In this document: in pieces, positions 12,120 through 48,841 of the stretch
How positions within the stretch are numbered: position 1 is the stretch's first letter
How the letters are laid out: each line of letters opens with the position of its first letter
Source: an uncultured Acidobacteriaceae bacterium
Lineage (GTDB): Bacteria > Acidobacteriota > Terriglobia > Terriglobales > Acidobacteriaceae
Direction of reading: 5' to 3'
NCBI GenBank assembly: GCA_963697035.1
Contig: CAVOMN010000004.1
Span: forward strand, 27,723 to 91,722
Length of the DNA: 64,000 nt
Translations under genes and position numbers: made by a program
The notes under the pieces: generated by a model
Told to the model about the DNA's origin: nothing
The model's input: only the letters and a program-made list of their open reading frames with translations
Databases searched by the model: none

Positions 12120-15100
12120 TTCTTAAGCTCTCAAACGATTCCTCCGGTTCCGGGAGCTTGTCGTTGTCCCTGGCGATCCACACATACAAAGTCGGCAACA
12201 GAACGATGCTCATGACCAGGGCGGAAATGAGGCCACCCACGATGACAATGGCGAAAGGGCCGCTGCGAATCGGAGCCAATGGCGTGCGAAAGCGCTGCCG
12301 GAACCAGTCCAAAGGTCGCCACCAGCATGGTCATCATGATGGGGCGAAGCCTCAGGACGGCGCCTTCGATGGCGGCATCCACGATGGTGTAGCCGCGAGC
12401 CCGGAGCTGGTTGATGTATTCCAGCATGATGACGCCGGTCTGGACCGACACCCCGAAGAGCGCCAGGAAACCGATGCCGGAGGACACGCTGAAGTTCGTA
12501 CCGGTGAGCAGCAACGCCAGCAGCCCGCCAATGCGCGCCATGGCCACGTTCAGCAAGAATGAGCAGCGCCCACTTCGACCGAACGGAACATGGTGTAAAG
12601 GATGATGAAAATGACGAGGAACGGTCAGCGGCACGATGAGCAGCAAGCCGCGCCTCGGCCCGCTTTTCGCTCTCGTATTCTCCCGACCAGCTCGAGGCGA
12701 TAGCCCGGCGGAAGTTTGCACTTTTTCGACTGATCTGGGCCATCGCATCTTCGACCGTGCTGCCCAGATCCCGTCCTCGCACATTGAAGGTCACGGCCAC
12801 GTAGCGGCTGTTTCCTTCGCGGTAGATATCGTAAGCGCCATCGCGAACTTCCACGCTGGTGAACTGCGCAAGCGACACTCGCTCCCCGGAAGGAGAGAGC
12901 AGTCGAATATCGCTCGATGGCGTCTTGCGTCCTTGCGGTAAGGCTCCTGGTAACGCACCACTACGTCGTAGCGTTGCTCGCCGGCAGCACTTCGCTCACG
13001 GCTTTCCCACCCACGGCGGTCTCGACCGCGTCTTGAATGTCGGTGACGTTGATTCCGAAACGCGCCGCTTGCTGCCGGTCGATGGTGAAGTTGAGATTCG
13101 GCTGGCCAAAATCACGATACAGCTTGACGTCCGTGATGCCGGGGATCTTCGACATGCACAGTCGATGATCTCGTTCGCCCTTATCCTCAAGGGTTTTCAA
13201 GTCATTCCCGAAGATCTTCAGCGCGAGTCGACCCTTGGTGCCGGTGATGCGTTTCGCCGACGTTGTCTTCAATCGGTTGCGAGAAATTCCAGATGGCACC
13301 CGGGTAATTTTGATATGGCGCGATTCATGGCGGCGATGAGTTCCTCTTTGTTCTCATGAAAAATGGGCCGCCATTGCGTCTTGCGGCTTCAAATCGACGA
13401 AATATTCTGTGTTGCCGAATCCACCGGTGTCGGTTCCGTCATCGGGCCGGCCAACCTCGGAGACGACGGTTGTTCACTTCCGGAAAGGACGCGAAGACAT
13501 AACGCTCGTTGGTCGTAAACTGCTCGCCTTCGGTAAGGCTGGTGCTGTTCGCGAGGGTGCCGCGCGCCCAGATCGCGCCTTCGTCCAGATGCGGCAGAAA
13601 TTCCGAGCCAATGATTCCGCTGAAGCCACAGAAACAGAGCGTCACCGCGAGCGCAGCCAACACCAACCGCGACCGTAAAGCCAGCGATGCCCCACGGCAC
13701 CAGCGCAGCCGCCGCCGGTAGTGCTCGGTGAGGTAGGCCATGACCGGGTTGTGCCATTCCCGAACACCACTCGCGGAACAACACGCTCGCCAGAACCGGG
13801 GCGATCAGGATGGAGAAGGTCATGGCGCCGAGCAGCGCAAAGGCCACGGTCCATGCCATGGGCCGGAACAAGCGGCCCTCCACGCGCTGCAGGGTGAAGA
13901 TCGGCAGATAGGCCGTGATGATGATGGCGATCGCGTAGAACACCGGGCGCTGCACTTCATGGCCGCCTCACGGATGATCTGCGTCGGACTCTTCAGCACC
14001 ATCGTGCGCGCCCTGACCCGGGGCCATTCTGGTGGTGGCTCATGTGCCGAACGATGTTTTCCACCATGACCACGGCGCCGTCGACCACCATGCCGAAGTC
14101 CAGCGCGCCCAGCGACAGCAGATTGGCCGGAACCTTGCTCAAGTCGAGCCAGATGGAAGCGAAGAGAAAGGAGAACGGAATGGTGAGCGCAACGATGAGA
14201 GCGGCGCGAACGTTACCGAGGAACAGGAAAAGGATGATGGTGACCAGGATCATCCCTTCGGCCAGGTTGTGCATCACGGTGTGCAGCGTGAAGTGAAGCA
14301 AATCGCTGCGGTCCAGCATCGGAACGACTGTCACGCCGGGAGGCAGAATACCGTTGTTGAGCTCGTCCACTTTATTGTGAATAGCCTCGAGCGTCGGTTC
14401 CTCTTCGGCGCCTTTGCGCATAATACACCGCACCCTGGATGACATCAGGTTCGTCCACAATGCGTCCGTCTTGCAGGTGGTTGGCTCTGGCCATGTGGCC
14501 CAGACGGATTTTCGGACCCTGCGTCACCTCGGCGATGTCTTTCACCCGAAGGGCGGTGCCGGTCTGAGTCTTCAGAACGGTCTGCTCGATGTCCTGCACG
14601 TCACCGAAAAGCCCGAGCGCGCGGACATTCATCTGTTGCAGGCCGTCTTCGACGAAGCTGCCGCCGGCGTTGATGTTGTTGCTGGCCAGTTGCTGCTCGA
14701 CCTGGCCGATGCTGGAGTCCGTATGACACCAGCTTGTTCGGATCCACGCGCACCTGGTACTCGCGCTCCGTGCCCCCGAAAGTCCGAAACGTCCACCACA
14801 TCGGGAACGGACTTGAATTGCTTGAGCAGAACGCAAATCCTCGATCGACCGCAACTCCATCAGGTCATAACGAGGGTTTGTGCTTCTCAGCGTGTACCAA
14901 TAGATCTGGCCGGTGGTGCTCCAGTCGGTGCCGATTTGCGGTTGAAGGTTTTGTCGGGAAGATCTGACCTGGGTGAGCCTCTCCAGAACCTTCTGGCGGT
15001 TCCAGTCATTCACGGAACTGTCGTCGAAGATCATGATCACGAACGACAGGCCGAAGATCGATTCGGACCGCAGATAGGTCATGTGCGGCATGCCCGGCCA

Positions 15101-15318
15101 TCTGGATCTCGATGGGGATGGTGACCTGCTGCTCCACCTCCTCGGCCGAGCGGCCCGGGCCATTGCGTGATGACCGTCACGTAGTTGTCGGCGATATCGG
15201 GATAGGCCTCAACAGGCAGGTTGTGGAATGAGATAACACCCCAGCCGAGCAACAGGACGGCGAGCGCAAGCACCACGAACTTGTTGTTGAGCGCAAAATC
15301 GACGAGAGCGCGAATCAT
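12120..15318 (-). pseudogene. czcA: CusA/CzcA-family heavy-metal RND efflux pump, roughly 8-9 frameshifts
   Basis: N-terminus MIRALVDFALNNKFVVLALAVLLLGWGVISFHNLPVEAYPDIADNYVTVITQWPG (15079..15318). Consecutive RND fragments in alternating frames: 14372..15163, 13993..14460, 13389..13955, 12961..13299, 12210..12878, 12131..12784, 11917..12312. 3' limit approximate. Confidence 0.85.
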
Positions 15319-19070: not shown

Positions 19071-20011
19071 TTAGCCGCTCGCGTGGGAAGGCCACGCGAT
19101 TGCCTCCACGGGCGGATCGAGACGACTCCGGGTTGCGGTTTGGAACGAAGTTGCCAGGGCCGCCTCCATCAGGGCGCTGGCCCGATTGGCTACGGGCTCG
19201 CCGCGAAATATTCCGAACCGGACTTCGGGAAGTACAGGGAGTTTGGCGTACCGGACTTCCTGAATGCCACCGTTCCGGACTGTTTCACGCAGAAATGCAG
19301 ATACTCCGAGTCCGGACTCCACTGCTGCCAGAGTCGCGTCTAAACTTGCGCTCTCGAATGTAACTCGCCATTCCCAGCCGGCCTGGCGCAACGCAAATAG
19401 TATTTCGCCGCGCCATAGGTCCGCGCCTTCACAAAGTACTAGCGGCAGCACCTGGAATGGCTCGATCGAGAAGTCTGCGGCGGCAAACCAGGTCAGTTGA
19501 GAACTCCATTCAATGACGGGCAGAGCCGCGATTGTAGCGGGATCACAGATGATGAAGTCCAATTCCTTTTGAGTAAGCAGAGACTCGAGTTCGGCGGCCG
19601 TGCCACCGTAAGTCTCAACTCAACGGCTGGATGACTGCGCTGGAATCGCTTCAATGCCGGCGTGAGCCCTGCCACGATTGTTTCCTCGCTAACTCCCAAT
19701 CGCACCGGACCGGAGGCGGATTCTTCCCGCAGCCGCGCCAAGGCCTCTTCATTGAGATCAACCGCGCGGTTCGCATACGCGACCAAAAGCTCGCCGTGGC
19801 GAGTCAAGCACACTCCGTTGCGGGTTCGGGAGAAAAGTTTTCGCCCGATAATTTCTTCCAGGCGCAACATCTGCTGGCTTACGGCAGATTGAGTCTTGGC
19901 GACCGCTGTCGCTGTCCTTCCCATGCTTCCGTGCCGGACGACAGCAAGAAAGGTGCGCAAAAGGCTGAGGTCCAAGTCTTCCCGATCGGTTGTCATCGTC
20001 ATATGCGACAT
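19071..20011 (-). pseudogene. LysR-family transcriptional regulator, one frameshift near 19.56-19.62 kb
   Basis: HTH half is 19493..20011 (LSLLRTFLAVVRHGSMGRTATAVAKTQSAVSQQMLRLEE). Effector-domain half is 19071..19562, in another frame. Confidence 0.75.
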
Positions 20012-20882: not shown

Positions 20883-21620
20883 TCAAAAAGACTCGTCGCT
20901 TCTTGCTGGAGATCCCGGCTCGGATGAATCAGCAAAGCGGTAGCCTACCCAGGGTTCGGTGAGAACGTATTTTGGACTTGCCGGGTCATCTTCAATTTTC
21001 TTGCGGAGGGTTCTTACGTAGGACCGCAGGTAATCCAGTTCGGTGCCGTATTCCGGCCCCCAGATGGTGCGTAACAACTTGGCGTGGGTGACCGGCATGC
21101 CGCGGTTGCGCATCAACAACGCCAGCAGGTCGAATTCTGTCGGCGTTAAATGCACGATCGCGCCCGCCTTGCGTAAAGAGTGGCGCTCCATATCCATTTC
21201 CAGATTGCCGGCTTGAAGGACGGGCGGTTCCATCCCCGCTTCGAAACGAACGCGGCGCAAGACGGCGTGCATGCGCGCGACTAGCTCGCCAAAGCGCACC
21301 GGCTTGGTGACGTAGTCGTCCGCGCCAGCCTCGAGCGCCCTCACCATATCGTGCTCCGCCTCGCGCACGGTCACCATGACGATGCCGACTTTAGGCGCCA
21401 AAGCGCGAATCTCACGGCAGGCTTCCACTCCGCCGATGCCGGGCATGTTGATGTCCAGCAATACCAGATCGAATGGGTGCTGCGGAAGAATGTCGACGGC
21501 TTCTTCGCCGCTGCGTGCTTCTTCCACTACGAAGCCACTGGCTGCCAGGGAGGTACCGAATGCTTTGCGAAGAGATGGCTCGTCATCCACCACCAAAACA
21601 TTGATTTGGCGCGTTGACAT
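20883..21620 (-). CDS. OmpR/KdpE-type response regulator
   Basis: 245-aa ORF. Receiver motifs VLVVDDEP and DLVLLDINMPG. Winged-helix C-terminus (LTPTEFDLLALLMRNRG, GYRF). Confidence 0.9.
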   Translation of the reverse strand: MSTRQINVLVVDDEPSLRKAFGTSLAASGFVVEEARSGEEAVDILPQHPFDLVLLDINMPGIGGVEACREIRALAPKVGIVMVTVREAEHDMVRALEAGADDYVTKPVRFGELVARMHAVLRRVRFEAGMEPPVLQAGNLEMDMERHSLRKAGAIVHLTPTEFDLLALLMRNRGMPVTHAKLLRTIWGPEYGTELDYLRSYVRTLRKKIEDDPASPKYVLTEPWVGYRFADSSEPGSPARSDESF

Positions 21621-21758
21621 CGGTAAATCTGGCCCTTCGCCGGATCTCTCGAATCGAGATCTTATAAGTCACACTAAATCTGATCTCATGAAAAATCCGT
21701 AAAAATTCCATAAGAAGTTGGTGGTGAAGCCGCGGCTGACGAAGTGAAATATTTAGGG

Positions 21759-23234
21759 TTACGAGACTGCGGTGAGCGCCTCGCTTTTTACCGCCGGCAA
21801 TGTCAGAAGAAAGGCGGTGCCGCGCTTCCCGGCTATTTCGGGTTCAAGCTGCAGAGTACCGCCGTGCGCGAGCGCTATTTTTCGAGCGACATACAGACCC
21901 AGCCCCGAGCCGGGCGCCAGATCGCGGGTTTGGGACCCCCGGTAGAAACGGTCGAAGATCTTTTCTCTTTCACTTCGCGTGATCATGCGCCCATCGTTCC
22001 ATACCCGGACTGTCACAAATCCATCTTGTGAACGAACGTCGACCTCAATTTCGGAACCGGGGGGCGAGTATTTGGCGGCATTGTCCAGCAGTTGGCGTAG
22101 AGCCAATTGAATAAGCTCCGAGTCGGCCGAAACCTCCGCGGATTCCACAGCCTTCGTCACGGAGAATTTCCGGTCAGTCCAACGCGCCGAATATTGTTGG
22201 ACCAGGTTGCTTACCAGACTCAGCGCATCAATAATTTCCAGTTGCGGCTTCACCTCCTCTCGATCGAGGCGGGCCACACGGAGCAATCGAGAAGTTAACC
22301 GCGCCAAACGGGAAGCCTCCACTTCCGCCAGTTCGGCCAGTTGCAACTGTTCAGGACGCAATCCGCCAATTTCACGCAGGCCGCTGGAGGCAGTGACGAT
22401 GGTGGCAAGAGGAGTTTTGAATTCGTGAGCCAGGGCGTCAAGAATCGCACCGCGAAACACTTCCGCCTGAGCCGCAGCGGCAGCGTAGCTCGCATTGCGA
22501 AACACGTGCGCTCTTTCCAGGATGGCCGCGGCTAATGCTGCCAACGGACCGGCGGTCAACTCCGGATTGCGCAAGCCCTCGAATCCAACTGCTCCAATGG
22601 TCTTACCACCGGCCTGAAGAGGACGGGTGTGGATCGCGGAAACGGTGTCATCTCCGTCCACTCGTTCAATATAGGCCGCTCTGGTTCTATCGGCCAGGTC
22701 AGCCGGGGAGTCACCCGCGCTGTAGAGTTCCGCGTTCGTCCCATCGAATAAACAGGCTGCCCGCATACCGAAAACCGTGCGGAACAGAGCGACCGACTTG
22801 CTTAGCATTCCGCCGCCCGGGTCCAATGCCAGCAACTGTTGTGCTAACTGGTAGAGGAGCTTCATGTCGCGGCGTTGAAGTTCCGATATCTCGCCTTCCT
22901 GCCGCACTTGAGTTGTGAGCCGGGTAATGACCAGCCCGGTGAGCAAAAAAGTAATCAGCGCCCAAGTGTCCGAGGAGTCACTGACCCGCAAGGAAAAGAT
23001 GGGAGGCACGAAAAAGAAATTCAAACAGAGGTCTGCGATGACGGAAACAATGGCCGAGGAAACGAAATCGCCGAGAAGGGATTGCAATACCACAACAATC
23101 AAATAAAGGAGGCTGGTCGCCGTGAGGTTTAGCCCCAACCCATAACAGATGAACGTTACCAGCCCGACCAGAAGTGTGCCGGGAATTGCCCGCAAACCGG
23201 AACGCCACTGGCTTGGGTTTATAACGCTCTTCAT
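21759..23234 (-). CDS. sensor histidine kinase, KdpD C-terminal type (DUF4118 membrane module, GAF-like, HisKA, HATPase)
   Basis: 491-aa ORF with 3-4 N-terminal TM helices. H-box LAHEFKTPLATI. N/G boxes LLDNAAKYSPPGS and GSGLGLYVARKIALAHGG. Confidence 0.9.
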   Translation of the reverse strand: MKSVINPSQWRSGLRAIPGTLLVGLVTFICYGLGLNLTATSLLYLIVVVLQSLLGDFVSSAIVSVIADLCLNFFFVPPIFSLRVSDSSDTWALITFLLTGLVITRLTTQVRQEGEISELQRRDMKLLYQLAQQLLALDPGGGMLSKSVALFRTVFGMRAACLFDGTNAELYSAGDSPADLADRTRAAYIERVDGDDTVSAIHTRPLQAGGKTIGAVGFEGLRNPELTAGPLAALAAAILERAHVFRNASYAAAAAQAEVFRGAILDALAHEFKTPLATIVTASSGLREIGGLRPEQLQLAELAEVEASRLARLTSRLLRVARLDREEVKPQLEIIDALSLVSNLVQQYSARWTDRKFSVTKAVESAEVSADSELIQLALRQLLDNAAKYSPPGSEIEVDVRSQDGFVTVRVWNDGRMITRSEREKIFDRFYRGSQTRDLAPGSGLGLYVARKIALAHGGTLQLEPEIAGKRGTAFLLTLPAVKSEALTAVS

Positions 23235-23375: not shown

Positions 23376-26135
23376 TTATCGCGATTGCGACTCATCGGAA
23401 TCTGCCCAACGGCATTCCGCAGGCGGCATCACAGTTTCTCCTTTGAGATTGAAATACCGGGTAGCGGTTATGCCGCCAATGGGGTTGTAATCGCGCTCGG
23501 CCCGGCAGTAGCCGCCGCGTCTTTCAACCGGAGATCCGTCAAGCCCGAAGTAGGTCTCTTCCGTTTGATTGCCGCGGCTGTCATAGACTCCTTTGAGAAG
23601 CGCATAGCCATCCGGATGCAAAGTGGGCTTCTCATCGGTTCCAAAAAATGCCTGCTCGACCACATTGCCGCGCGCGTCATACTTTGATTGCAGGCGGGCA
23701 AAACCTTCCTTGCCCACGATCAGAGCGCCATCCACCCCGTGACACTGGGTGGTCAGCACATTTCCGCGATCGTCATACTCAGCAACCAACCGGGCCAGGT
23801 GATCTTTGCCAAGAATAGGCTTCCCATCCACACCGAAAATCTTTACCTCGGTGTAGTTCCCCCGCGCATCGTAGGTTTTCACCACGCTGGCGCAACCCCT
23901 CGCGTCCAGAATGGGCCGGCCGTCCATGCCGAAATAATCTTCTCTGGTGCGGTTGCCCCGCGCGTCGTAGGCGAAAGTGGTTCTCGCATAGCCAGCTTTT
24001 CCCAGGATAAGTGAGCCGTCGGCGCCGAAGTAGCTTTGCTCGATCGGATTTCCGTGCGCGTCAAAAACAGAAACCATCCGGGCATAACCGTTCTTCCCCA
24101 CAATCGGAGCACCGTCAGTTCCGAAACTCGCAATCTCCGTCAGGTTCCCGCGCGCGTCGTAAGCAAAGGTCACTCGCGCATAGCCATCGCTGGTCAGGAT
24201 GGGCGCATCATCCACGCCCAAATAGGCCAGAGCTACCACGTTCCCGCGCGCGTCGTAAGCGGATATTTCCCGGGCAGAACCTCTCTTGCACTGTGTGGGC
24301 GCTCCCTTCTCATCAAAATAGGCTCTGCTGGTCTCGGCGCCGCGAGCGTCATACGCAAAAGTGATTCGCGCATAGCCTTGCTTCGACAAGATGGGCTCAC
24401 CGCTTACCCCAAAATAAGCGCACTCCGTGATGTTGCCACGCGGATCGAACTTTGCGGTGCATCGAGCGTGACCATTGGCGCACAGGATGGGAGCACCGTT
24501 CACAGCAAAACAGGCCCATTGTGTCATGTCATTGCAGGAATCATAGCTGCACGTCGCGCGGGCGTAACCATCCGTACATGGAATGGGAGCACCATCGGGG
24601 CCGAAAAATACCTGCTCGATCACGTTCCCTTTAGCATCATATTGCGAAGTTGTGCGGGCATATCCCTGCCGTGACACAACCGGCTCACCGTTGGGCCCAC
24701 GGTAAGAGCTTGCCCGGACGTGACCAAATTCGTCGTATTCATTCCCCCAAATTGCTATCCAATCTTCATTGCACGAGGGCACGCCGTGGTCATCCCGGCA
24801 GATCAGACGAGTAGCATTGCCATCATTGTCGTATTCGGTGGTGACGGAAGCGTATTCCCGGCCCGTCACGATCAACTGGCCAAGGCTATCGTGATAAGAC
24901 CAGCGCGTCAGGCGGTGCGCGGAATCGTACTCGTGATGTTCCTCGGCTACGCCATTCCGCTGCGTAACACACTGGCCCGCGGCATCCAAATACCAGGTGC
25001 GGATTCGCAACCCGCAACTGTCAACTTCATAGCCCTCTCCGTAATTGCCGGCTGCGTCCTGGGCCGGAGTATTGAAAGTGTCCCGGGCATAGTGCCGCCG
25101 AGCAACAAAGGCTCGATCGTCATACGTCAAGAGATGGCGAACGATCTCCGCGTTGCTGATCAAGAGCTGGTTCATTTCCTTCCGGGTGAAACCCAAACCG
25201 CCCGCGAACGATCCCTGCGCCACTGCACGGTCGTCCTCAGTTTGAAAATCCACGGTGCGGGCGTCCCGGCTATAGGTCTGCCGAAGTTTGACCCCTCCAT
25301 GCCGGTTGCGGGAGTCAACTGCTTCCACAGTACCGTTGGAACGGTAAGTCACGTCCAGCTGAGCGACTCCACTGTCGTCTTCCCGCAACATGCCATGGCT
25401 ATCCACCCGCTTTACGCTTTGCACCCGGCCATCGCGCATGTCGAATTGCCAGGAGAACTGGCGGCGCGCGACATTTTCCGCTGAAAGCCGTCCAACTCCT
25501 TCGGGAACACCGCGGCGCCAGACCACGTCGTGAAAGTATTCGCTCTTGGTTTCGCGTTTGCGGAGCGTGGCGAGGCACTCCCGCAAATCAGAGAGAGAGC
25601 AATTCAGCAGCCCTGCGAGCAACCGGTCGCGCGCCAGTTCCTTGAGTTCCTGGTCCGTCATATTTTGCCGGGCGGTGACGTCGGCACCCGCTGGAACCAC
25701 TAACTCCATGACCGTGGCCGGCCCCTCGCCGACCATGCGGTATTGCCGAAGCTCGCTGGGAAAGGACTCCTCGGGACGGCCCGAGGTAAGTAGGACAAGA
25801 ATCCTGTCAGACCGTTCCCAGTGCTTGAAGAGGGCAATTTCGGCGCGCACCCAATCCGACTTGGGAGTGTTGGGAGAGCAAACCACGATCAGGTGGGAGG
25901 AATTCCAGAGGGCCGCTTTGAGATCACCGGAAAGGTCGGCACTGGCCGACATTTCGTTGTCGTCCCGGAAAATGAGTCCAACGCGGTCAGGAACGCCCTG
26001 CTTGCGGAGGGGTTCGGGTGTGTCGAAATTTCCCAGCGCCTCGACCAGCCATTCCGCCCACTGGGTATCCTCCGGAAGGCGTCGGTAGCTGACAAAGACA
26101 CTGTACTTCGGTTCTTCAAGCCCAGGCATGCGCAT
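23376..26135 (-). CDS. cytoplasmic TIR-domain protein fused to a YD/RHS-like repeat array
   Basis: ORF 23376..26213 opens with GTG; the likely ATG is at 26135 or 26129. TIR pattern YSVFVSYRR..LIFRDDNEM..HLIVVCSPNTPKSDWVRAEIALF. No signal peptide or TM segment. The following ~700 aa are YDxxGN-type repeats. Confidence 0.85.
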   Translation of the reverse strand: MRMPGLEEPKYSVFVSYRRLPEDTQWAEWLVEALGNFDTPEPLRKQGVPDRVGLIFRDDNEMSASADLSGDLKAALWNSSHLIVVCSPNTPKSDWVRAEIALFKHWERSDRILVLLTSGRPEESFPSELRQYRMVGEGPATVMELVVPAGADVTARQNMTDQELKELARDRLLAGLLNCSLSDLRECLATLRKRETKSEYFHDVVWRRGVPEGVGRLSAENVARRQFSWQFDMRDGRVQSVKRVDSHGMLREDDSGVAQLDVTYRSNGTVEAVDSRNRHGGVKLRQTYSRDARTVDFQTEDDRAVAQGSFAGGLGFTRKEMNQLLISNAEIVRHLLTYDDRAFVARRHYARDTFNTPAQDAAGNYGEGYEVDSCGLRIRTWYLDAAGQCVTQRNGVAEEHHEYDSAHRLTRWSYHDSLGQLIVTGREYASVTTEYDNDGNATRLICRDDHGVPSCNEDWIAIWGNEYDEFGHVRASSYRGPNGEPVVSRQGYARTTSQYDAKGNVIEQVFFGPDGAPIPCTDGYARATCSYDSCNDMTQWACFAVNGAPILCANGHARCTAKFDPRGNITECAYFGVSGEPILSKQGYARITFAYDARGAETSRAYFDEKGAPTQCKRGSAREISAYDARGNVVALAYLGVDDAPILTSDGYARVTFAYDARGNLTEIASFGTDGAPIVGKNGYARMVSVFDAHGNPIEQSYFGADGSLILGKAGYARTTFAYDARGNRTREDYFGMDGRPILDARGCASVVKTYDARGNYTEVKIFGVDGKPILGKDHLARLVAEYDDRGNVLTTQCHGVDGALIVGKEGFARLQSKYDARGNVVEQAFFGTDEKPTLHPDGYALLKGVYDSRGNQTEETYFGLDGSPVERRGGYCRAERDYNPIGGITATRYFNLKGETVMPPAECRWADSDESQSR
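23418..24665 (-). repeat. 13 consecutive 32-aa (96-nt) coding repeats, consensus GYARxTxxYDARGNxxExxYFGxDGxPIxxxx
   Basis: Read directly from the translation; the period is exactly 32 residues through the last 416 aa before the 13-aa tail. Confidence 0.8.
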
Positions 26136-26217
26136 GCATCCAGGCCAGAAAGTATAACCCGCTTGAAGATAACCCGCGCGCTTCCCTGGTCCGCGCGCTA
26201 CGAATGGCTTCACACCC

Positions 26218-27118
26218 TTACTTTAGGGCCCCGCACTTACTTAAGATGACGCGGAGATGTTCGCGATCTGCCGCGAATAACGCAGGGAGTGGCGGTCGAA
26301 CCGGACCTACATTGATGCCGCAGAGGTTCATGGCTTCTTTAATCACGGAGGTCGAATAACCGGGATGCTTGACCCGCATATCAAAAATGGCGAGTGTGTC
26401 TCTTTCGACAATTCTTGCCGCTTCTTCCAGTTGCCGGTTCTGCAGGCAGGTCATAATTCCCGTGAGGTTTGCGGCATAAAGTTTACGATGCCGCTGGTAA
26501 ACCCTTCACGCCTAAGGCTGCATAGCTTGGCATCAGAATCTCGCCCACTCCGCACAGCATCTCAAAGCGGTCGCCGACGGCTGCTGTTGTCGAACAAACT
26601 GTTTCATATCACCATGCTCATCTTTAAGCCAACCATGTTAGGGATCTCAGCGAGTCGACGAAGCAAAGCCGGGCTGAAATGAACTCGGGGGTCTGGAAGA
26701 GGATGACCCCAAGATCGGTGGCCTTCGCGGCCGCCTGATAATACGCAAACATGCCCTCCTCATTCGATCTGGAAAAGTGAGGCGGAAGAATTAAGATGCC
26801 GTCGGCGCCATATGCTTCGGCCGCCTGTGCCAGTTCGCAAGTGTCCGGAAGGGAGAACCCGGTTCCGACTAACACGGGCTTACGTTTGCCGACTTCTTCG
26901 ACTACGGTGCGGCCCACCAATTTCTGCTCGTTGAGCGAGAGGGAGAAAATTTCGCCGTTATTGCCCAACGCAACCACCAAATCGCAATATTTCGCCAGAT
27001 GGGCGGCGTTCTGCCGCAGAGATTGCTCATCGATCGTCAAATCCTGGTGGAAAGGCGTAACTCCAAATCCAATCAGGCCATGTAGCGCCGACTTCAGTTC
27101 AGCAGGACTTAGTCCCAT
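26218..27118 (-). pseudogene. DapA/DHDPS-family aldolase/dehydratase, frameshifted
   Basis: N-terminal 26624..27118 (GLIGFGVTPFHQDLTIDEQSLRQNAAHL..GADGILILPPHF). C-terminal 26218..26454 in another frame. The middle part is only readable in a third frame. Confidence 0.7.
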
Positions 27119-27216: not shown

Positions 27217-28476
27217 TTATGTTCTCTCGTCCACCAATCGGACGCCGGCAGTTCTGCAATGCGTAGGATGTACCAAAACAATGACCACAATGGCGGCACA
27301 AATAATCATGCCCGAGCCCGCGACGAACACCGACGCGTAAGAGACATTGGCCACCAGCCATCCCGTTACCAGAGTGAAAGCCATTCCCCCGATTGCTCCC
27401 GCCGTTCCTGTCAGACCGGTCACCTGTCCCACTTCATGGCTTCCAAAAAGATCAATAGGCAAACTCAGCATGTTGCTGGCCCAACCTGTATAGCCAAATA
27501 ACACAACGCTAATCCAAGCCAGCGCGTTGCCGCGCTGGAAGCGCGGGCAGCGAAATGCCGCAAAGCATGAGAAGTGCGCCATAACCCATCACTATTTTCC
27601 GAGCCTTCACTTCGGAAATCCTCTCCCGACAAGGGCATCCGATACGTATCCACCAAACCAGCCACCCACACCGGCAAAAACAAATGGGATCCAGGCGGTA
27701 TGACCGATTTGTGCGAGACTGAAGCCCCGACTGTGTGCCAAATAGCTGGGTAGCCAAAATGCGTAAAACCACCACACTGGGTCGGCCAATGACCGGGAAA
27801 TCATCAAGCCCCCAACAGCCCGGTTGCGTAAATGCGACCGGAACGAATGGCTGCCATTCGAGGAAGTCGCCGTCGGTTCTGGTTCCGCAACTGGTTCGCG
27901 TTTATAAAGGACGCTCCACAGCAAAACCCAGATGAAGCCCGACAGCCCGACCACAACGAACATCATCCGCCATCCCCAGATTGCCGTGACTGCGGAAACA
28001 ATCGGCGGGGCGATAATCGCGCCGGCAGTTGAGCCACTATTGAATACACCGACAGCAAAGGCACGGCGAGGCATGGGAAAGTTCTCGCTCACCGCCTTGA
28101 CCGCTCCAGGCCAATTGCCGGCCTCCGCCATCCCCAACAAAAAACGAAGAACCCCAAAACTCAGTACTCCGGCAGAAAGGCCGTGCAGCATGCTCACTAC
28201 CGACCACGCGGCAACACACAGCAACATGCCCAGCCGGCTGCCGGTCTTATCAATCAATCCGCCTGCCAATGCCTGGCTGATGGTGTAACCAAGAAGAAAA
28301 ACAAAAATGACGTGCGAATAATCCAGGGTAGAAAGTGAGATTTGGACTGCCAGAACTGGCGCAACTACGGACAGGGCCTGCCGGTCGAGGTAATTGACGG
28401 CGGTCGCGGCAAATAACAGGGCCATGAACAACAAACTCATAGCCGCGAGTTGATCGCTTGATTGGCTTGAGACCAT
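27217..28476 (-). pseudogene. MFS transporter (hexuronate/ACS-like), frameshift near 27.6 kb
   Basis: 27607..28476 (AVNYLDRQALSVVAPVL..GGLIDKTGSR..GMAEAGNWPGAVKAV) continues as 27217..27582 in another frame. Confidence 0.75.
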
Positions 28477-29657: not shown

Positions 29658-30902
29658 TTATTTCTTTCGAACCCCCTGCAATCCTGTACTTAGATTTACC
29701 TTCCAGGCGATGTCATGAATGTCCGGCACGGATTGGTCAATCTCATATTCGCGCCAGCCAATCTTGTAGTGCAGCGCTTTCACCTTGTCCCAGTCGATGT
29801 CGACACCTAGGCCGGGGCCTTCGGGAACCAGCATGTATCCCGACTCGTAGAGAATTGGATTAATCGCCGGATCTTCGGTGTACAACTTGGGTCCAATCGC
29901 GACGGTCGGATAGTGAATATTGATTACGGCAGCTCCGACATGAGCCTCCGCGGCGGTTCCCAGCGAAGTTTCCTGTGTCGTGCTTAAGATGGTTCGCAGA
30001 CCCAGCGTCTCGGCAACGGCGAACACCTTCAACGACTCCCGCATGCCGCCATGAGCGCTGTTCGCAACGTTGATGATGTCGATTGCGCGCGCCTTCCACA
30101 TGGCGAGCGCGTGCCGCGCGTCGCCCACATGCTCACTGACCGGGATATCGAGTTTGGCCCTTGCCTCCGCCATGCCCTCGATATTGTGAAACGGAGCGAT
30201 ACTCTCGACGTACTGGGGCTCGTAGTATTTCCGCATGCGATGGATCAACCGCACCGAGTCGGTGGGATGAACGTGATTGCTGAGATCAAAGGCCTGCATG
30301 GTGATGCGGTCGCCCACCTGGTTTCTGAGGGCGGAGAGGAAAATTTCGTCGAAGTCCGGCGCGCCTCCAATGTACAGGCGGAAATTATCGAAGCCTTCGC
30401 CAAGAAACCGTTCCACCAGCGCTAGATTCTGCTCGACATGCTTTTCATTGAGGTTTCTGAAAATCGGGATGCAGACCTTGATCCTGGTTCGTACCGGCCC
30501 ACCAAAGAGCGCGTAAACCGGAACTCCCAGAGCCTTACCGGCAATATCGTGCAGCGCCATCTCAAATCCTGCACGAAGACTCCCGGTGTAAATGCCGGTA
30601 TCACCACGCCCGGTCAAAAGCAGGCCGAGAAGATGGTCGAGCCTTGCCACTTCCATGGCGTTTTGGCCGCACAGCACATTGGACAGGCTCTTTTGGAGAT
30701 CTTCCAGATCGGGCATGGTGAGCGGCAGGTCGGTGATATCGGCGTATTCGCCGACACCGGCAATCCCGGAATCTGTATCCAGGCGAATGAGAACATGCTG
30801 CGACGCATCGCCGGATATTCGCGGGGTTCGGATTGGATACAGGCTGATTTTCGTAATAATTACCGAATTCTTGCGATTCAGATGGTCACTGTTTTCGGTC
30901 AC
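29658..30902 (-). CDS. enolase-superfamily (mandelate racemase/muconate lactonizing) enzyme
   Basis: 414-aa ORF. Capping domain plus TIM-barrel pattern (GVGEYAD, ALHDIAGKALGVPVYALFGG, FDLSNH, VSEHV). Confidence 0.85.
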   Translation of the reverse strand: MTENSDHLNRKNSVIITKISLYPIRTPRISGDASQHVLIRLDTDSGIAGVGEYADITDLPLTMPDLEDLQKSLSNVLCGQNAMEVARLDHLLGLLLTGRGDTGIYTGSLRAGFEMALHDIAGKALGVPVYALFGGPVRTRIKVCIPIFRNLNEKHVEQNLALVERFLGEGFDNFRLYIGGAPDFDEIFLSALRNQVGDRITMQAFDLSNHVHPTDSVRLIHRMRKYYEPQYVESIAPFHNIEGMAEARAKLDIPVSEHVGDARHALAMWKARAIDIINVANSAHGGMRESLKVFAVAETLGLRTILSTTQETSLGTAAEAHVGAAVINIHYPTVAIGPKLYTEDPAINPILYESGYMLVPEGPGLGVDIDWDKVKALHYKIGWREYEIDQSVPDIHDIAWKVNLSTGLQGVRKK

Positions 30903-36696: not shown

Positions 36697-37002
36697 GAGT
36701 CCTCCAGAGAAACTGGCCCGGTTAAGTGCATGTGAGCGATGGCGAAAAGAACATCAGCCCCACCACCGCGCGCAGTGGCACGATCTTTCGCGGGAGCGTG
36801 GTATCGAAACCGGCCGCTGACGAGGTGCCCTCCACTGGAGGGCGACCCGGTTGCGGATTCCGGAGAAGTGAACACCGGTGATGGCCCGCGAACCACCTTG
36901 TCAGGGCAAGTTCCCGCCTCAAGAGTTAGGTAGGCCGTCTGGTTTGGCGAGCGAACTGTCTTCTTGAGCTGTTGATAGATTGATCGATTTCTTTGCGGAA
37001 TA

Positions 37003-37021
37003 CTGTGCAGAATGGCTCACT
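37003..37021. promoter_or_regulatory. quasi-palindromic motif copy 1: CTGTGCAGAATGGCTCACT
   Basis: 61 nt upstream of the Crp/Fnr paralog 1 ATG. Confidence 0.45.
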
Positions 37022-37081
37022 CTCGACGTGGAGACAAAATTTATGCGAATTGGGTGTCGTTTTTCCGGACTATACTTATCG

Positions 37082-37762
37082 ATGATGAGCCCTAGTGCGG
37101 CGGCAAAGAAAAACCGTGAGTTCGACCCCAAGAGCTTCCTGGCAACCATTGGTGCCGGGAGAAAGCTCTTGGCCGTCCCAGGGAAGCAAACGATATTCAC
37201 GCAAGGGGACGGGGCGGACGCGGTCTTCTATATCCAGAAAGGCAAAGTGAGGCTCACCGTCGTTTCCAAAATTGGCAAGGAAGCGACGATCGGCATGCTG
37301 AGTGAGGAGAATTTTTTTGGCGAAGGCGCGCTGGCTGGCCAGGTCCTTCGTATGGGATCCGCGGCTGCCATGACGGATTGCGAGCTGTTGCGGATCGAGA
37401 AGAAGGCCATGATGGAAGCTCTTCACCGCGAGCAGGCGCTTTCCGACATGTTCGTGGCATATTTGCTGGCCCGGAATATCCGCTACGAAGAAGACCTGGT
37501 GGACCAGCTCTTCAACTCCAGTGAGAAGAGACTGGCTCGCGTTCTTCTGTTGCTTGCACATTTTGGCAAAGAGGGTATTCCGGAAACCGTGGTTCCCAAA
37601 ATCAGCCAGGAGACCCTGGCCGAAATGGTTGGAACTACTCGTTCGCGAGTCAGTTTTTTCATGAACCGCTTCAGGAAGCTGGGATTCATTCACTATGCTG
37701 GAGGGGTAGAAGGCGGGTTACAGGTTCACAGTTCGCTGCTTAACGTCGTCCTAAACGATTGA
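37082..37762 (+). CDS. Crp/Fnr-family transcriptional regulator (paralog 1)
   Basis: cNMP-binding fold (IFTQGDGADAVFYIQKGKVRLTVVSKIGKEATIG..FFGEGALAG). C-terminal HTH (ISQETLAEMVGTTRSRVSFFMNRFRKLGFI). ATG at 37082 chosen by alignment with paralog 2. Confidence 0.9.
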   Translation: MMSPSAAAKKNREFDPKSFLATIGAGRKLLAVPGKQTIFTQGDGADAVFYIQKGKVRLTVVSKIGKEATIGMLSEENFFGEGALAGQVLRMGSAAAMTDCELLRIEKKAMMEALHREQALSDMFVAYLLARNIRYEEDLVDQLFNSSEKRLARVLLLLAHFGKEGIPETVVPKISQETLAEMVGTTRSRVSFFMNRFRKLGFIHYAGGVEGGLQVHSSLLNVVLND

Positions 37763-38421: not shown

Positions 38422-39099
38422 ATGGCGCCCGGCTTGACTGCAAAAACGAAACTAAAGAAGAATCCCGAGTTCGATCCCACCACTTTCTTGGCGACGATTG
38501 GCGCCGGCCGGAAGTTTGTGCCTGCTCCGGCAAAGCAAGCGATATACACGCAGGGGGACGCGGCGGACGCTATCTTTTATATCCAAAAAGGTAAAGTGAG
38601 GCTCACCGTCGTCTCCAAAATTGGTAAGGAAGCCACCATCGGCGTATTGAGTGAAGAGAATTTCTTTGGAGAGGGCGCGCTGGCTGGTCAAATTCTGCGT
38701 ATGGGATCCGCGGCTGCAATGACGGATTGCGAACTGCTGCGGATCGACAAAAAGGCCATGATGCATGCACTTCACCGCGAACATGCATTTTCCGATCTGT
38801 TTGTTGCATATTTGCTGGCGCGGAATATCCGCTACGAAGAGGACCTGGTGGACCACCTGTTTAATTCCAGCGAAAAGAGACTGGCCCGGGTCCTTCTATT
38901 ACTCGCTCATTTTGGCAAGGAGGGCGTTCCGGAAACTGTAGTCCCCAAAATCAGCCAGGAGACGCTGGCCGAGATGGTGGGAACCACCCGTTCGCGAGTC
39001 AGCTTTTTCATGAACAGATTCAGAAAATTAGGATTCATTCACTACAACGGCGGTCTTCAGGTCCACAGTTCGCTGCTCAACATCGTTTTACACGACTAG
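38422..39099 (+). CDS. Crp/Fnr-family transcriptional regulator (paralog 2)
   Basis: 225-aa ORF, near-identical to paralog 1 across the cNMP and HTH regions. Confidence 0.9.
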   Translation: MAPGLTAKTKLKKNPEFDPTTFLATIGAGRKFVPAPAKQAIYTQGDAADAIFYIQKGKVRLTVVSKIGKEATIGVLSEENFFGEGALAGQILRMGSAAAMTDCELLRIDKKAMMHALHREHAFSDLFVAYLLARNIRYEEDLVDHLFNSSEKRLARVLLLLAHFGKEGVPETVVPKISQETLAEMVGTTRSRVSFFMNRFRKLGFIHYNGGLQVHSSLLNIVLHD

Positions 39100-45389: not shown

Positions 45390-46151
45390 ATGTCTCCTAA
45401 TCGCCAAACCAACGGTACTCCCCCCAGAAGGAAAGTCGCCCGCCCAACCCTGATCGTCCCGGCATTCCAACCAGAGCGTAATGCCATAAGTCCAGGTGTA
45501 GTAGCCAAGAGAAGGCACGCTTTCGATCCCCATGAATTCCTCGCGACCATCGGCGAGGACAGGAAATCTGTGCTTTTCCAGAGGAAGCACGGAATCTTTG
45601 CACAAGGGGATACCGCGGATGCTGTGTTTTATATCCAGACGGGCAACGTGAAACTCACCGTGGTCTCGAAAACTGGCAAGGAAGCAACCATCGGCATACT
45701 AAGTGACGGAGATTTTTTCGGCGAAGGTTTGCTTGCGGGCCAAGCGCTCCGCATGCACTCGGCAACCGCAATGACGGATTGCGCTGTACTGCGAATCGAC
45801 AAGCTTGCCCTGATGGAAGCCCTTCATCGAGAACACGAATTTTCTGACCTATTCGTGGCCTATTTGTTGTCGCGGAACATCCGTTACGAAGAAGATCTGG
45901 TTGATCAGCTTTTCAATTCGAGCGAAAAGAGGCTGGCCCGTATCCTTTTACTGCTCGCTCATTTTGGCAAGGAAGGCAAACCGGAGAGTGTAGTTCCCAA
46001 GATCAGTCAGGAAGTCCTGGCGGAAATGATCGGCACAACCCGCTCGCGGGTCAGCTTCTTCATGAACCGGTTCAGGAAATTGGGATTTATTCAATACAAT
46101 GGCAAGTTGCAAGTCCATAGCTCGCTGCTTAACGTCGTTCTGCACGACTAG
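45390..46151 (+). CDS. Crp/Fnr-family transcriptional regulator (paralog 3)
   Basis: AAGGAGG SD 7 nt upstream. Same cNMP and HTH motifs as paralogs 1 and 2, with a longer N-terminal extension. Confidence 0.85.
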   Translation: MSPNRQTNGTPPRRKVARPTLIVPAFQPERNAISPGVVAKRRHAFDPHEFLATIGEDRKSVLFQRKHGIFAQGDTADAVFYIQTGNVKLTVVSKTGKEATIGILSDGDFFGEGLLAGQALRMHSATAMTDCAVLRIDKLALMEALHREHEFSDLFVAYLLSRNIRYEEDLVDQLFNSSEKRLARILLLLAHFGKEGKPESVVPKISQEVLAEMIGTTRSRVSFFMNRFRKLGFIQYNGKLQVHSSLLNVVLHD

Positions 46152-47827: not shown

Positions 47828-47983
47828 TCAGATCCGACCGAGAACCAGGAGAATGACAACGATCAACAGGACCAGTCCTACTCCTCCGGTCGGGGCATAG
47901 CCCCAGTCCCGGCTATGCGACCACCGTGGCAGCGCACCAAAGAGTGCGAAAACCAAAATCACAATCAAGATAGTTCCAAGCAT
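47828..47983 (-). CDS. DUF3309-like small membrane protein (51 aa)
   Basis: Hand-translated: MLGTILIVILVFALFGALPRWSHSRDWGYAPTGGVGLVLLIVVILLVLGRI. AAGGAG SD. Its stop lies 3 nt before the next gene start. Confidence 0.6.
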   Translation of the reverse strand: MLGTILIVILVFALFGALPRWSHSRDWGYAPTGGVGLVLLIVVILLVLGRI

Positions 47984-48061
47984 GTTGTCACTCCTTCATT
48001 CCGTGATTCAGGAATATTGGCTATCTGGTGCAGCCTCCTTCGAGGCTGCACCGGGTGACCG

Positions 48062-48841
48062 CTACATCGAGATGCTGATCGCAATTCCGACGTTGGGATA
48101 CCGGCGGTCGTACAGGTAGTAGCCGTTGTCGACGTAGGCGACATAGACGTCGTCATTGTCGTACCAGTCATTGCCCCAGTATTCCGGCCAGGGATCAACG
48201 AGACTGATCCAATAGCCCTGGTACTGGAAGCGCGGATATCCGCCAACAACCAGGAAGGGCAGGCCGTAGATTCGGAACCCATGGCTCGGCCCAAAGTATC
48301 CACGGAAACGGTCGTCAGGAATGCGGTAGCCGTTGTAGCCGCCGCGTTGTTGCCAGGTGCGGTGGTCGGACTCCCAGCTTCGTGCGCCGATGCTGCTGCC
48401 AGGCTCTGTTGACTGCTGCTGCGCAGCGTTGTGTGCTCATTGCCCTGCTGCTGCTGGGCGTGCTGTTGCTGTTTGTTCTGGTCTTGCTGCTGTTGCTGCT
48501 GGGCATGCTGTTGCTGCTTGTTCTGGTCCTGCTTCTGCTGCTGCTGGGCATGCTGTTGCTGCTTGTTCTGGTCCTGCTTGCTGCTTGTTGCTGAGCATGC
48601 TGTTGCTGCTTGTTCTGGTCTTGCTGCTGCTGTTGCTGAGCATGCTGCTGCTGCTGTTCTGGTCTGACTGCCGTTGCTGTTGAGCATGCCGGCGTCGGGC
48701 TTGGCTTGCTCGTGCTTGCTCTGCTGCTGTTCGGGATGGTCTTGCTTTTCGCCCTGCTGCTCCTGCTGTGCGTAAGCCGGAGCAGGCGATTCCGAGAATC
48801 AAAGACAGAACGGCTGTGCTGATGATTCCAATCGCTTTCAT
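48062..48841 (-). pseudogene. secreted Gln-rich repeat protein with Tyr/Trp/Gly-rich C-terminal domain, reading frame broken several times
   Basis: GGAGG SD plus signal peptide MKAIGIISTAVLSLILGIA. QDQNKQQQHAQQQQ repeats in a second frame. C-terminus WQQRGGYNGYRIPDDRFRGYFGPSHGFRIYGLPFLVVGGYPRFQYQGYWISLVDPWPEYWGNDWYDNDDVYVAYVDNGYYLYDRRYPNVGIAISISM in a third frame. Confidence 0.5.
48445..48690. repeat. about 5 imperfect tandem copies of a roughly 45-nt CAG/CTG-rich unit
   Basis: Units of ctgctgggcatgctgttgctgcttgttctggtcctgct.. whose lengths are not all multiples of 3. Confidence 0.7.

Follow-up and report, generated by a model that had tools for sequence, protein, structure and literature searches.

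A predicted cytoplasmic protein joining an N-terminal TIR domain to a 32-residue YD-type hairpin array in an uncultured Acidobacteriaceae bacterium: a candidate single-chain sensor-effector

Results

A 64,000-nucleotide stretch of DNA from an uncultured Acidobacteriaceae bacterium (GenBank assembly GCA_963697035.1, contig CAVOMN010000004.1, positions 27,723 to 91,722; hereafter the window) encodes, at window positions 23376..26213 on the minus strand, a protein in which an N-terminal TIR domain is followed by a long array of beta-hairpin repeats (hereafter the query). The longest open reading frame (ORF) of this gene, of 945 amino acids (aa), was confirmed. With moderate confidence, the query is interpreted as a stand-alone, cytoplasmic, single-chain sensor-effector in which the array would drive a TIR NADase, most plausibly in response to infection or conflict. 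The idea that sensor and effector are combined in a single polypeptide had been put forward in an earlier note on this DNA, and it gained support from the observation that related arrays appear to be exchanged among kinase, STAND and TIR proteins.

TIR domain and predicted active site

The TIR domain was assigned to aa 37-178 of the query (25680..26105, -) on the basis of Pfam matches, the strand/helix alternation of an AlphaFold2 model and the profile of a clade of relatives that, like the query, have no transmembrane (TM) helix (the TM-less clade). Pfam TIR_2 was matched over aa 39-144 (E=6.1e-9, 36.9 bits, cutoff 28); TIR was also matched, as was ThsB_TIR (E=2.1e-6, 28.5 bits, cutoff 21.2). 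These matches bore out the N-terminal TIR domain recognised in the earlier note. The profile of the TM-less clade additionally matched the structures of AtTIR, L6, ROQ1, TLR2 and TcpB. In a comparison with the TIR domains of TIR-WD40 and TIR-TPR proteins, which gave the nearest matches, E values ranged from 1.6e-29 to 5.4e-14.

Most bacterial TIR NADases need a WxxxE motif in the C-helix for activity (PMC11374754). In the query, this motif reads W121-V-R-A-E125 (25839..25853, -), and E125, the predicted catalytic glutamate, aligned with the motifs SsWCldEL of AtTIR (3jrn) and SkWClmEL of L6 (3ozi), as well as with residue ~87 of ROQ1. The presence of a glutamate at the catalytic position, as read earlier from the letters of the sequence, was thus corroborated by alignment with plant TIR domains. 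The glutamate was also conserved among relatives, since it was kept in 12 of 13 members of the TM-less clade and in 64 of 65 TM-bearing TIR relatives. One member of the TM-less clade, P0155, has RVRAK in place of WVRAE and CSPH in place of SYRH, and its TIR domain is probably catalytically dead. At the level of sequence, the query has the features of a TIR NADase, and cleavage of NAD+ is predicted.

Hairpin array

The C-terminal half of the query (aa 441-920; 23454..24893, -) consists of 15 beta-hairpin units in an exact 32-aa register, as delimited from hidden Markov model (HMM) hits and the AlphaFold2 model. The units share the consensus FGxDGxPIxxxxGYARxxxxYDARGNxTxxxY, and YDxxGN motifs are spaced at exactly 32 aa from aa 461 to 877. 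The query matched Pfam RHS_repeat (E=1.1e-12, 48.4 bits, cutoff 22) and NCBIfam TIGR01643, YD_repeat_2x (23.5 bits, cutoff 15.8). Canonical YD repeats have a period of roughly 20 aa. The exact array is preceded by a degenerate N-terminal hairpin region (aa 223-440; 24894..25547, -), which is conserved across the TM-less clade and holds a short helical insert at aa ~340-352; two degenerate units upstream of the exact array, at aa 377 and 409, keep to the 32-aa register. Beyond the final complete unit, only a domain-free tail of 25 aa remains (aa 921-945, FNLKGETVMPPAECRWADSDESQSR; 23379..23453, -), which was modelled with low confidence and whose first 8 residues resemble the start of a further unit. 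The earlier description of phased 32-aa repeats of the YD type was therefore correct in repeat type and register, and had to be amended from 13 to 15 units and from a 13-aa to a 25-aa tail.

Units of the query were mutually 37% identical, and no DNA-level tandem repeat was detected in the gene by Tandem Repeats Finder, which indicates an old, diverged array rather than a recently amplified one. A sequence search of the PDB with the array (aa 240-945) gave no match at E<=1.

Absence of a membrane helix

Neither a TM helix nor a signal peptide was found in the hydropathy profile of the query. Its maximum 19-residue Kyte-Doolittle hydropathy was 0.96, versus 2.07-2.81 in relatives with a TM helix or signal peptide. 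Pfam and motif searches detected no PAAR or other secretion domain, in full agreement with the earlier note. At the position that is occupied by a TM helix in relatives, the query has a two-helix linker (aa 187-221, DQELKELARDRLLAGLLNCSLSDLRECLATLRKRE; 25551..25655, -), assigned from AlphaFold2 helices and hydropathy. Hydropathy at this position was 0.92 in the query, versus 1.6-2.9 in TM-bearing relatives.

In the query and 14 further sequences (P0001-5, P0030, P0033, P0038-40, P0059, P0096, P0155 and P0171), which together make up the TM-less clade, the TM helix is replaced by a charged, conserved helix with the pattern (A/L)RDRLAA.LLGC.L..L. Hydropathy at the TM position ranged from 0.2 to 1.56 in this clade, whose members align over ~445 aa with a mean column identity of 57%. 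Clade members, for which the genome scan used a 5-sequence alignment, were found in Acidobacteriaceae, Korobacteraceae, Hyphomonadaceae and other metagenome-assembled genomes (MAGs) of Pseudomonadota. Relatives are labelled "toll/interleukin-1 receptor domain-containing protein" or "hypothetical protein" in public databases.

In a neighbour-joining tree of TIR domains, the TM-less proteins formed one clade, of which the sister group and all other groups were TM-bearing. Because the TM-less proteins nest among TM-bearing groups, secondary loss of the TM helix in the clade of the query is the parsimonious reading, and the cytoplasmic state of the query would then be derived. Its small clade, of about 15 clusters, would on this view descend from a much larger, undescribed family of receptor-like proteins whose array sits outside the cytoplasm after one TM helix and is coupled to a TIR, Ser/Thr kinase or STAND NTPase domain on the inner side. 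That most relatives carry a TM helix between TIR domain and array had been missed in the earlier note.

Distribution of the array module

A word-indexed search returned only five full-length relatives with both TIR domain and array; it also picked up a STAND NTPase (P0006) and Ser/Thr kinases (P0007, P0010) that are followed by the same array. When 1.84 billion cluster representatives were searched exhaustively with HMMER, at least 1,811 array clusters (at 50% identity, and as a lower bound) were recovered at E<=1e-30. A second homolog search yielded mostly fragments and few new full-length proteins. Throughout the family, the 32-aa spacing prevailed (642 occurrences, versus 190 at 31 aa and 180 at 33 aa), and arrays comprised 14 units at the median and 29 at most.

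Array proteins with TIR, kinase and STAND domains have in common a module start, V(W/R)RRGVPEGVG, whose R, P, E and G hardly vary among the three types of fusion. This family-wide motif is present in the query as VWRRGVPEGVG (aa 231-241; 25491..25523, -), and in P0006, P0007 and P0010 it comes after the TM helix. Pfam partners of the array were TIR_2, Pkinase, nSTAND1 and AAA_35, and a PDZ domain often follows the array. The array itself is barely seen by Pfam, which reported only the TIR domain in P0056 and nothing in P0149. Since the same array and module start stand behind Ser/Thr kinases, nSTAND1, AAA_35 and TIR domains, the array shows what would be expected of a sensor module that can be exchanged between proteins.

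Of the 150 top-ranking representatives, 96 carried exactly one TM helix, placed between N-terminal domain and array, 18 had several hydrophobic segments and 7 had an N-terminal signal or anchor only (121 of 150 in all). The TIR domain came first in 81 of 175 sequences, and at least 56 of these 81 carry a clear TM helix right after it, which makes TIR-TM-array a common architecture. The implied topology, with the TIR domain inside and the array outside the cell, would resemble that of Toll-like receptors. A TM helix after the TIR domain is also carried by the TIR-WD40 and TIR-TPR proteins nearest to the query by their TIR domains. In P0006, P0035, P0082, P0098 and P0103, a kinase, nSTAND1 or AAA_35 domain is followed by a TM helix, a 32-aa array and a PDZ domain; a C-terminal PDZ domain together with a sensor array that is apparently extracytoplasmic makes for an unusual kind of STAND NTPase.

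The combination of a TIR domain with a YD array had been thought undescribed, and this impression held: the combination is absent from the PADLOC models, a literature search found no paper that joins YD repeats with TIR domains, and three surveys (PMC7075850, PMC7159879, PMC8195603) do not describe an architecture of TIR domain and hairpin array.

Neighbouring genes

Conflict-type genes (STAND-WD40, CHAT, further TIR, caspase-family, Roc-COR and RyR) abound at several homolog loci, which speaks for a role in conflict. Locus L007 encodes a STAND-WD40 protein, an LCAT-like lipase and a CHAT protease, and locus L014 a caspase-family peptidase. At locus L012 (345-7405), genes for a PfkB kinase, a 470-aa protein with TIR_2 and TGT-like domains, an Ogg-HhH protein, QueC and a 156-aa TIR-only protein are directly followed by P0005; this row is possibly a multi-TIR cluster tied to 7-deazaguanine. 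Genes for a TraG/VirD4-like ATPase, RyR-domain proteins and an LRR-Roc-COR GTPase occur at L001 (969-9990), L005 (2307-4914) and L011 (766-3284), where they adjoin P0001, P0004 and P0059, a sub-branch of the TM-less clade. The TraG-like gene was rejected as a conserved partner, as it was present at 2 loci only, beside P0001 and P0004; its recurrence had been missed by all-versus-all clustering of neighbours through an ORF-calling artefact. Immediately downstream of P0002 at L003 (4919-6272), and convergent with it, lies a pair of genes for a DraG-like ADP-ribosylglycohydrolase and the ADP-ribosyltransferase DRAT, which are also NAD-using. At L014 (8001-11109), a frameshift has broken the TIR-array homolog into two overlapping ORFs (520 and 522 aa), and truncation of this sort probably also explains the short homologs P0175 and P0176.

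In the window, a gap of 141 bp separates the TIR-array gene from a co-oriented downstream histidine kinase gene (21759-23234), which encodes a DUF4118-HisKA-HATPase_c protein and is followed by an OmpR-type response regulator gene (20883-21620), both identified by Pfam (20883..23234, -). A scan of the 141-bp gap for promoters and terminators gave no consensus match. Upstream of the TIR-array gene lie a frameshifted DHDPS-family gene and genes for sugar-acid catabolism. Such surroundings would suit a protein that acts in non-immune signalling, in which the array would sense an endogenous envelope or carbohydrate cue and the TIR domain would make an NAD-derived signal or tune NAD+, perhaps together with the kinase and regulator. 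The co-orientation, the short gap and the lack of a terminator match agree with this alternative, as do the sugar-acid catabolic neighbours and a nearby enolase-superfamily gene, both of which are found in the window and at locus L006, from an Acidobacteriaceae MAG, which holds the closest ortholog. The occurrence of the same array in Ser/Thr kinases, a classical kind of signalling protein, points in the same direction. However, kinase and regulator were absent at L006 and at all other loci compared. The DNA match between L006 and the window was confined to the gene itself, so that flanking DNA is not conserved even at 72% identity of the gene, and the neighbours of the ortholog include GH30, IclR and FAA-hydrolase genes. 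The enolase-superfamily gene lies on opposite sides of the TIR-array gene in the two genomes, and matches of kinase and regulator to Pfam and PADLOC models were generic. A role in endogenous signalling is therefore considered unlikely.

Across the 11 loci compared, the TIR-array gene was the sole shared gene family; the survey of homolog neighbourhoods thus revealed conflict-type genes at several loci and no neighbour family common to all. Because only this family is shared, adjacency to the kinase and regulator is not conserved and the gene is regarded as stand-alone. The pair that the earlier note had pointed out is real, downstream and co-oriented, but a functional link with it found no support, and to judge from these comparisons the two genes are probably mere neighbours rather than part of the system. 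The change of side of the enolase-superfamily gene (L006, 14618-15829; window, 29658-30902) suggests a local rearrangement around the TIR-array gene.

Conservation between orthologs

The query and its L006 ortholog aligned without internal gaps, frameshifts or stops and have equal numbers of units. Amino-acid identity decreased from the TIR region (94%; nonsynonymous divergence, dN, 0.039) through the linker helices (86%; dN 0.065) and the degenerate hairpin region (78%; dN 0.132) to the 32-aa array (66%; dN 0.238), in which units 3-7 (aa 505-664) were the most divergent (50-59% identity) and units 10-11 were conserved. Purifying selection clearly acts on the gene, the effector being conserved and the array evolving faster.

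These data also bear on the possibility that the query, freed of its membrane anchor, is a non-catalytic derivative: through contacts between TIR domains or between arrays, it would serve TM-bearing paralogues as an adaptor, a decoy or a dominant-negative partner. Derivation of its clade from TM-bearing, receptor-like proteins and the loss of both the WxxxE and SYRH motifs in P0155 are compatible with such a role, and adaptor TIR domains exist in animals (PMC7075850). Against it stand the retention of WxxxE throughout nearly all of the clade and the strong constraint on the TIR domain of the query; moreover, no TM-bearing paralogue was seen in the window and no such partner was conserved in the flanks. 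A non-catalytic role is accordingly judged improbable.

Delivery of the protein into other cells as a toxic effector, for example by a type IV system, is very unlikely. The TraG/VirD4-like ATPase gene that adjoins the homologs P0001 and P0004 would agree with it, but this gene is absent from the window and from most other loci, the query has neither a signal peptide nor a secretion domain, no immunity gene is conserved across the 11 loci, and the TIR domain of relatives is placed on the cytoplasmic side of the TM helix.

Predicted structure

AlphaFold2 modelling of the query, with a 22-sequence alignment and a sequence starting at Met27, gave a confident model (mean predicted local distance difference test, pLDDT, 87.7; predicted template-modelling score, pTM, 0.77). 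The TIR domain was modelled as alternating strands and helices (pLDDT ~90) and the linker as helices at model residues 161-177 and 181-195. Approximately 10 less regular strands and the short helical insert made up the degenerate region. In the array, each 32-aa unit formed one beta-hairpin (6+7 residues) and a 13-residue loop, at a pLDDT of 85-97.

The earlier note had read the protein as an inverted Rhs architecture, with the YD array as a sensor or cage. As a cage, the array would close into an Rhs-type cocoon around the TIR domain, or mask it, before a trigger arrives. Matches to the RHS_repeat and YD_repeat HMMs are in line with such a cage, and a pTM of 0.77 suggests a defined global shape. 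In a Foldseek search of the PDB, shells of Rhs, teneurin and TcB/TcC proteins also ranked top (E 1e-27 to 1e-14), but template-modelling scores (TM-scores) with these shells were only 0.13-0.39 at root-mean-square deviations of 15-34 A, so that the likeness is local. Open, single-layer sheets matched equally well on this local scale: engineered OspA sheets were found in the PDB, and MORN- and YwqK-type hairpin proteins, at low TM-score, were the only matches in a viral fold library. Pattern searches of the query found neither DPxG[LW] nor PxxxxDPxGL core/protease motifs, a Pfam scan gave no RHS core match, and no C-terminal cargo or plug follows the array, after which only the 25-aa low-confidence tail remains. 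Unit number is also flexible, as the near-identical alleles P0002 and P0003 (L003 and L004), from different metagenomes, differ by exactly 128 aa, or four units, and as unit counts vary across the family. Furthermore, the array cannot enclose the N-terminal domain in most relatives, because the membrane lies between them.

In the model, the hairpins are of the YD type, but superposition of the whole on a closed cocoon fails. The structure prediction thus supplied the expected hairpin in each unit and only a local match to Rhs shells, and the inverted-cage proposal, which fails on motifs, cargo, TM-score and the four-unit indel, is highly improbable. Classification as a Rhs/YD polymorphic toxin was likewise rejected for the query, which has no secretion module, core/protease motif or cargo, and the protein should not be called a Rhs protein, inverted or otherwise.

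Gene start and further features of the window

The longest ORF runs from a GTG at 26213 to a TAA stop at 23376-23378 (23376..26213, -; translation checked), and the DHDPS-family reading frame upstream stops ~10 nt before this GTG. The annotated start is doubtful, because the 83%-identical L006 ortholog, which begins MPEAQDPKYSVF, has its first residue aligned to Met29 of the query. Alignment with this ortholog gives Met27 (26133-26135) and Met29 (26127-26129) as candidate true starts (26127..26135, -). The GTG is probably too far upstream, and the likely coding sequence is 23376-26129 or 23376-26135, corresponding to ~917-919 aa.

Several other genes of the window are split: the DHDPS-family gene has at least 3 frameshifts, an MFS transporter and a LysR regulator gene are each represented by two ORFs, and an RND pump gene is in several pieces (26222-27118, 27217-28476, 19071-20011 and 12210-15163, all -). 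Gene decay or an assembly prone to indels (from long reads) may account for this splitting. The TIR-array ORF, of 2.8 kb, is intact despite its split neighbours. Elsewhere in the window, a Gln-rich low-complexity ORF at 47965-48687 (-), beginning QQQKQDQNKQQQ..., accounts for an AT-skew outlier of -0.30 at 48-50 kb, and three paralogous ORFs on the plus strand (36980-37762, 38422-39099 and 45390-46151) share the N-terminal motif EFDP.(S/T)FLATIGAG.

Discussion

The architecture of the query, in which a TIR domain and a two-helix linker precede an open-ended array of ~17 YD-type hairpins, suggests a mechanism in which the array would bind a ligand or act as a scaffold. Once bound to the array, a multivalent or oligomeric ligand may gather TIR domains, and the active site around Glu125, which would depend on TIR-TIR contacts, could then cleave NAD+. 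Depletion of NAD+ or a signal derived from ADP-ribose would lead to growth arrest or cell death. Infection or conflict is the most plausible setting for these events, although both the immune role and the nature of the ligand are inferred.

A number of observations weigh against interpretation of the query as an array-driven immune NADase. Sugar-acid catabolism and regulatory genes surround the gene both in the window and at L006, and no recognisable defence island is present. PADLOC returned for the query only a weak ThsB match (E=0.0018), and among its neighbours in the window only generic HATPase and receiver-domain similarities, with no recognised defence genes nearby. The TIR tree on which loss of the TM helix is based was midpoint-rooted and without support values, and TM calls were made from a hydropathy threshold instead of a dedicated predictor. 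Synonymous divergence (dS) between the query and its L006 ortholog was saturated, so that ratios to dN are qualitative only. Finally, the superstructure of the array was judged from scores, motifs and unit counts and not from model coordinates.

In a wider and more tentative reading, which is possible but not the more probable one, the query represents a cytoplasmic branch of a large, unrecognised class of one-component surface receptors, in which an ectodomain of 32-residue beta-hairpins would signal across the membrane, through a single TM helix, to a catalytically competent TIR domain or, in its place, to a Ser/Thr kinase or STAND NTPase. The TM-bearing forms would then be TIR receptors of Toll-like topology and the clade of the query their cytosolic counterpart, a split that may be likened to that between surface and intracellular immune receptors of eukaryotes. 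According to a 2024 survey of E. coli TIR proteins, bacterial TIR systems seem to lack features resembling those of Toll-like receptors, namely a TM helix and a repeat ectodomain (PMC11350192). Should the TM-bearing forms prove to be genuine receptors, they would be bacterial TIR proteins that sense outside the cell, whereas in the current picture sensing occurs from within only.

Irrespective of the wider reading, the 32-residue YD-type hairpin array, barely detected by Pfam, would be a new sensor module for the TIR-repeat design. It is used at a large scale, in at least 1,811 clusters, where its outputs are TIR, kinase or STAND domains and a membrane usually lies in between. The TM-less clade offers a soluble, tractable protein, and the TM-bearing relatives are the more striking lead.

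Among known systems, the TIR-TPR protein 'TIR-II' of E. coli (PMC11350192) and TIR-WD40 proteins are most like the query, as they too combine an N-terminal TIR domain and a repeat sensor in one chain encoded by a stand-alone gene. Single-protein systems with TIR and TPR or with TIR and TM segments protect E. coli from phage via cell death or growth arrest (PMC11350192). By analogy, the same logic would be expected for the query, with the sensor driving activation of the TIR domain and growth arrest following. In contrast to these proteins, the query has as its sensor a 32-residue YD-type hairpin array instead of TPR or WD40 repeats, and it has no TM helix after the TIR domain, which the nearest such relatives carry.

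Hairpins of the query resemble those in the shells of Rhs, TcB-TcC and teneurin proteins, as they are recognised by the RHS_repeat and YD_repeat HMMs and matched locally by Foldseek. They differ from these shells in their period of 32 aa and flexible copy number, and in the absence of core, plug, cargo and secretion module. With Thoeris, the query shares a TIR domain of the ThsB-like type, which is fused, however, to ~700 aa of repeats. Assignment to Thoeris was rejected for the query, as Pfam and PADLOC detected no ThsA-type gene among its window neighbours and no partner was found across the 11 loci.

TM-bearing relatives of the query (for example P0056 and P0143) share with animal Toll-like receptors a repeat ectodomain, one TM helix and a TIR domain in the cytoplasm. 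Unlike in Toll-like receptors, the TIR domain of the family is N-terminal (type II orientation), the repeats form a hairpin array rather than LRRs, and the catalytic glutamate is kept; the query itself has no TM helix, and homology is implied for the TIR domain only. In Ser/Thr kinases of the PknB/PknD type and in STAND (Avs/NLR-like) proteins, the array takes the sensor position in a kinase-TM-array-PDZ or STAND-TM-array-PDZ arrangement. The query differs from these in having no kinase or NTPase domain and a cytoplasmic array. Fusion of a TIR domain to a repeat sensor recurs in immunity, in Toll-like receptors, plant TIR-NLRs, bacterial TIR-TPR proteins and Avs systems. With a sensor module that has itself not been described as such, the query fits this design of a TIR domain plus a repeat sensor in one chain.

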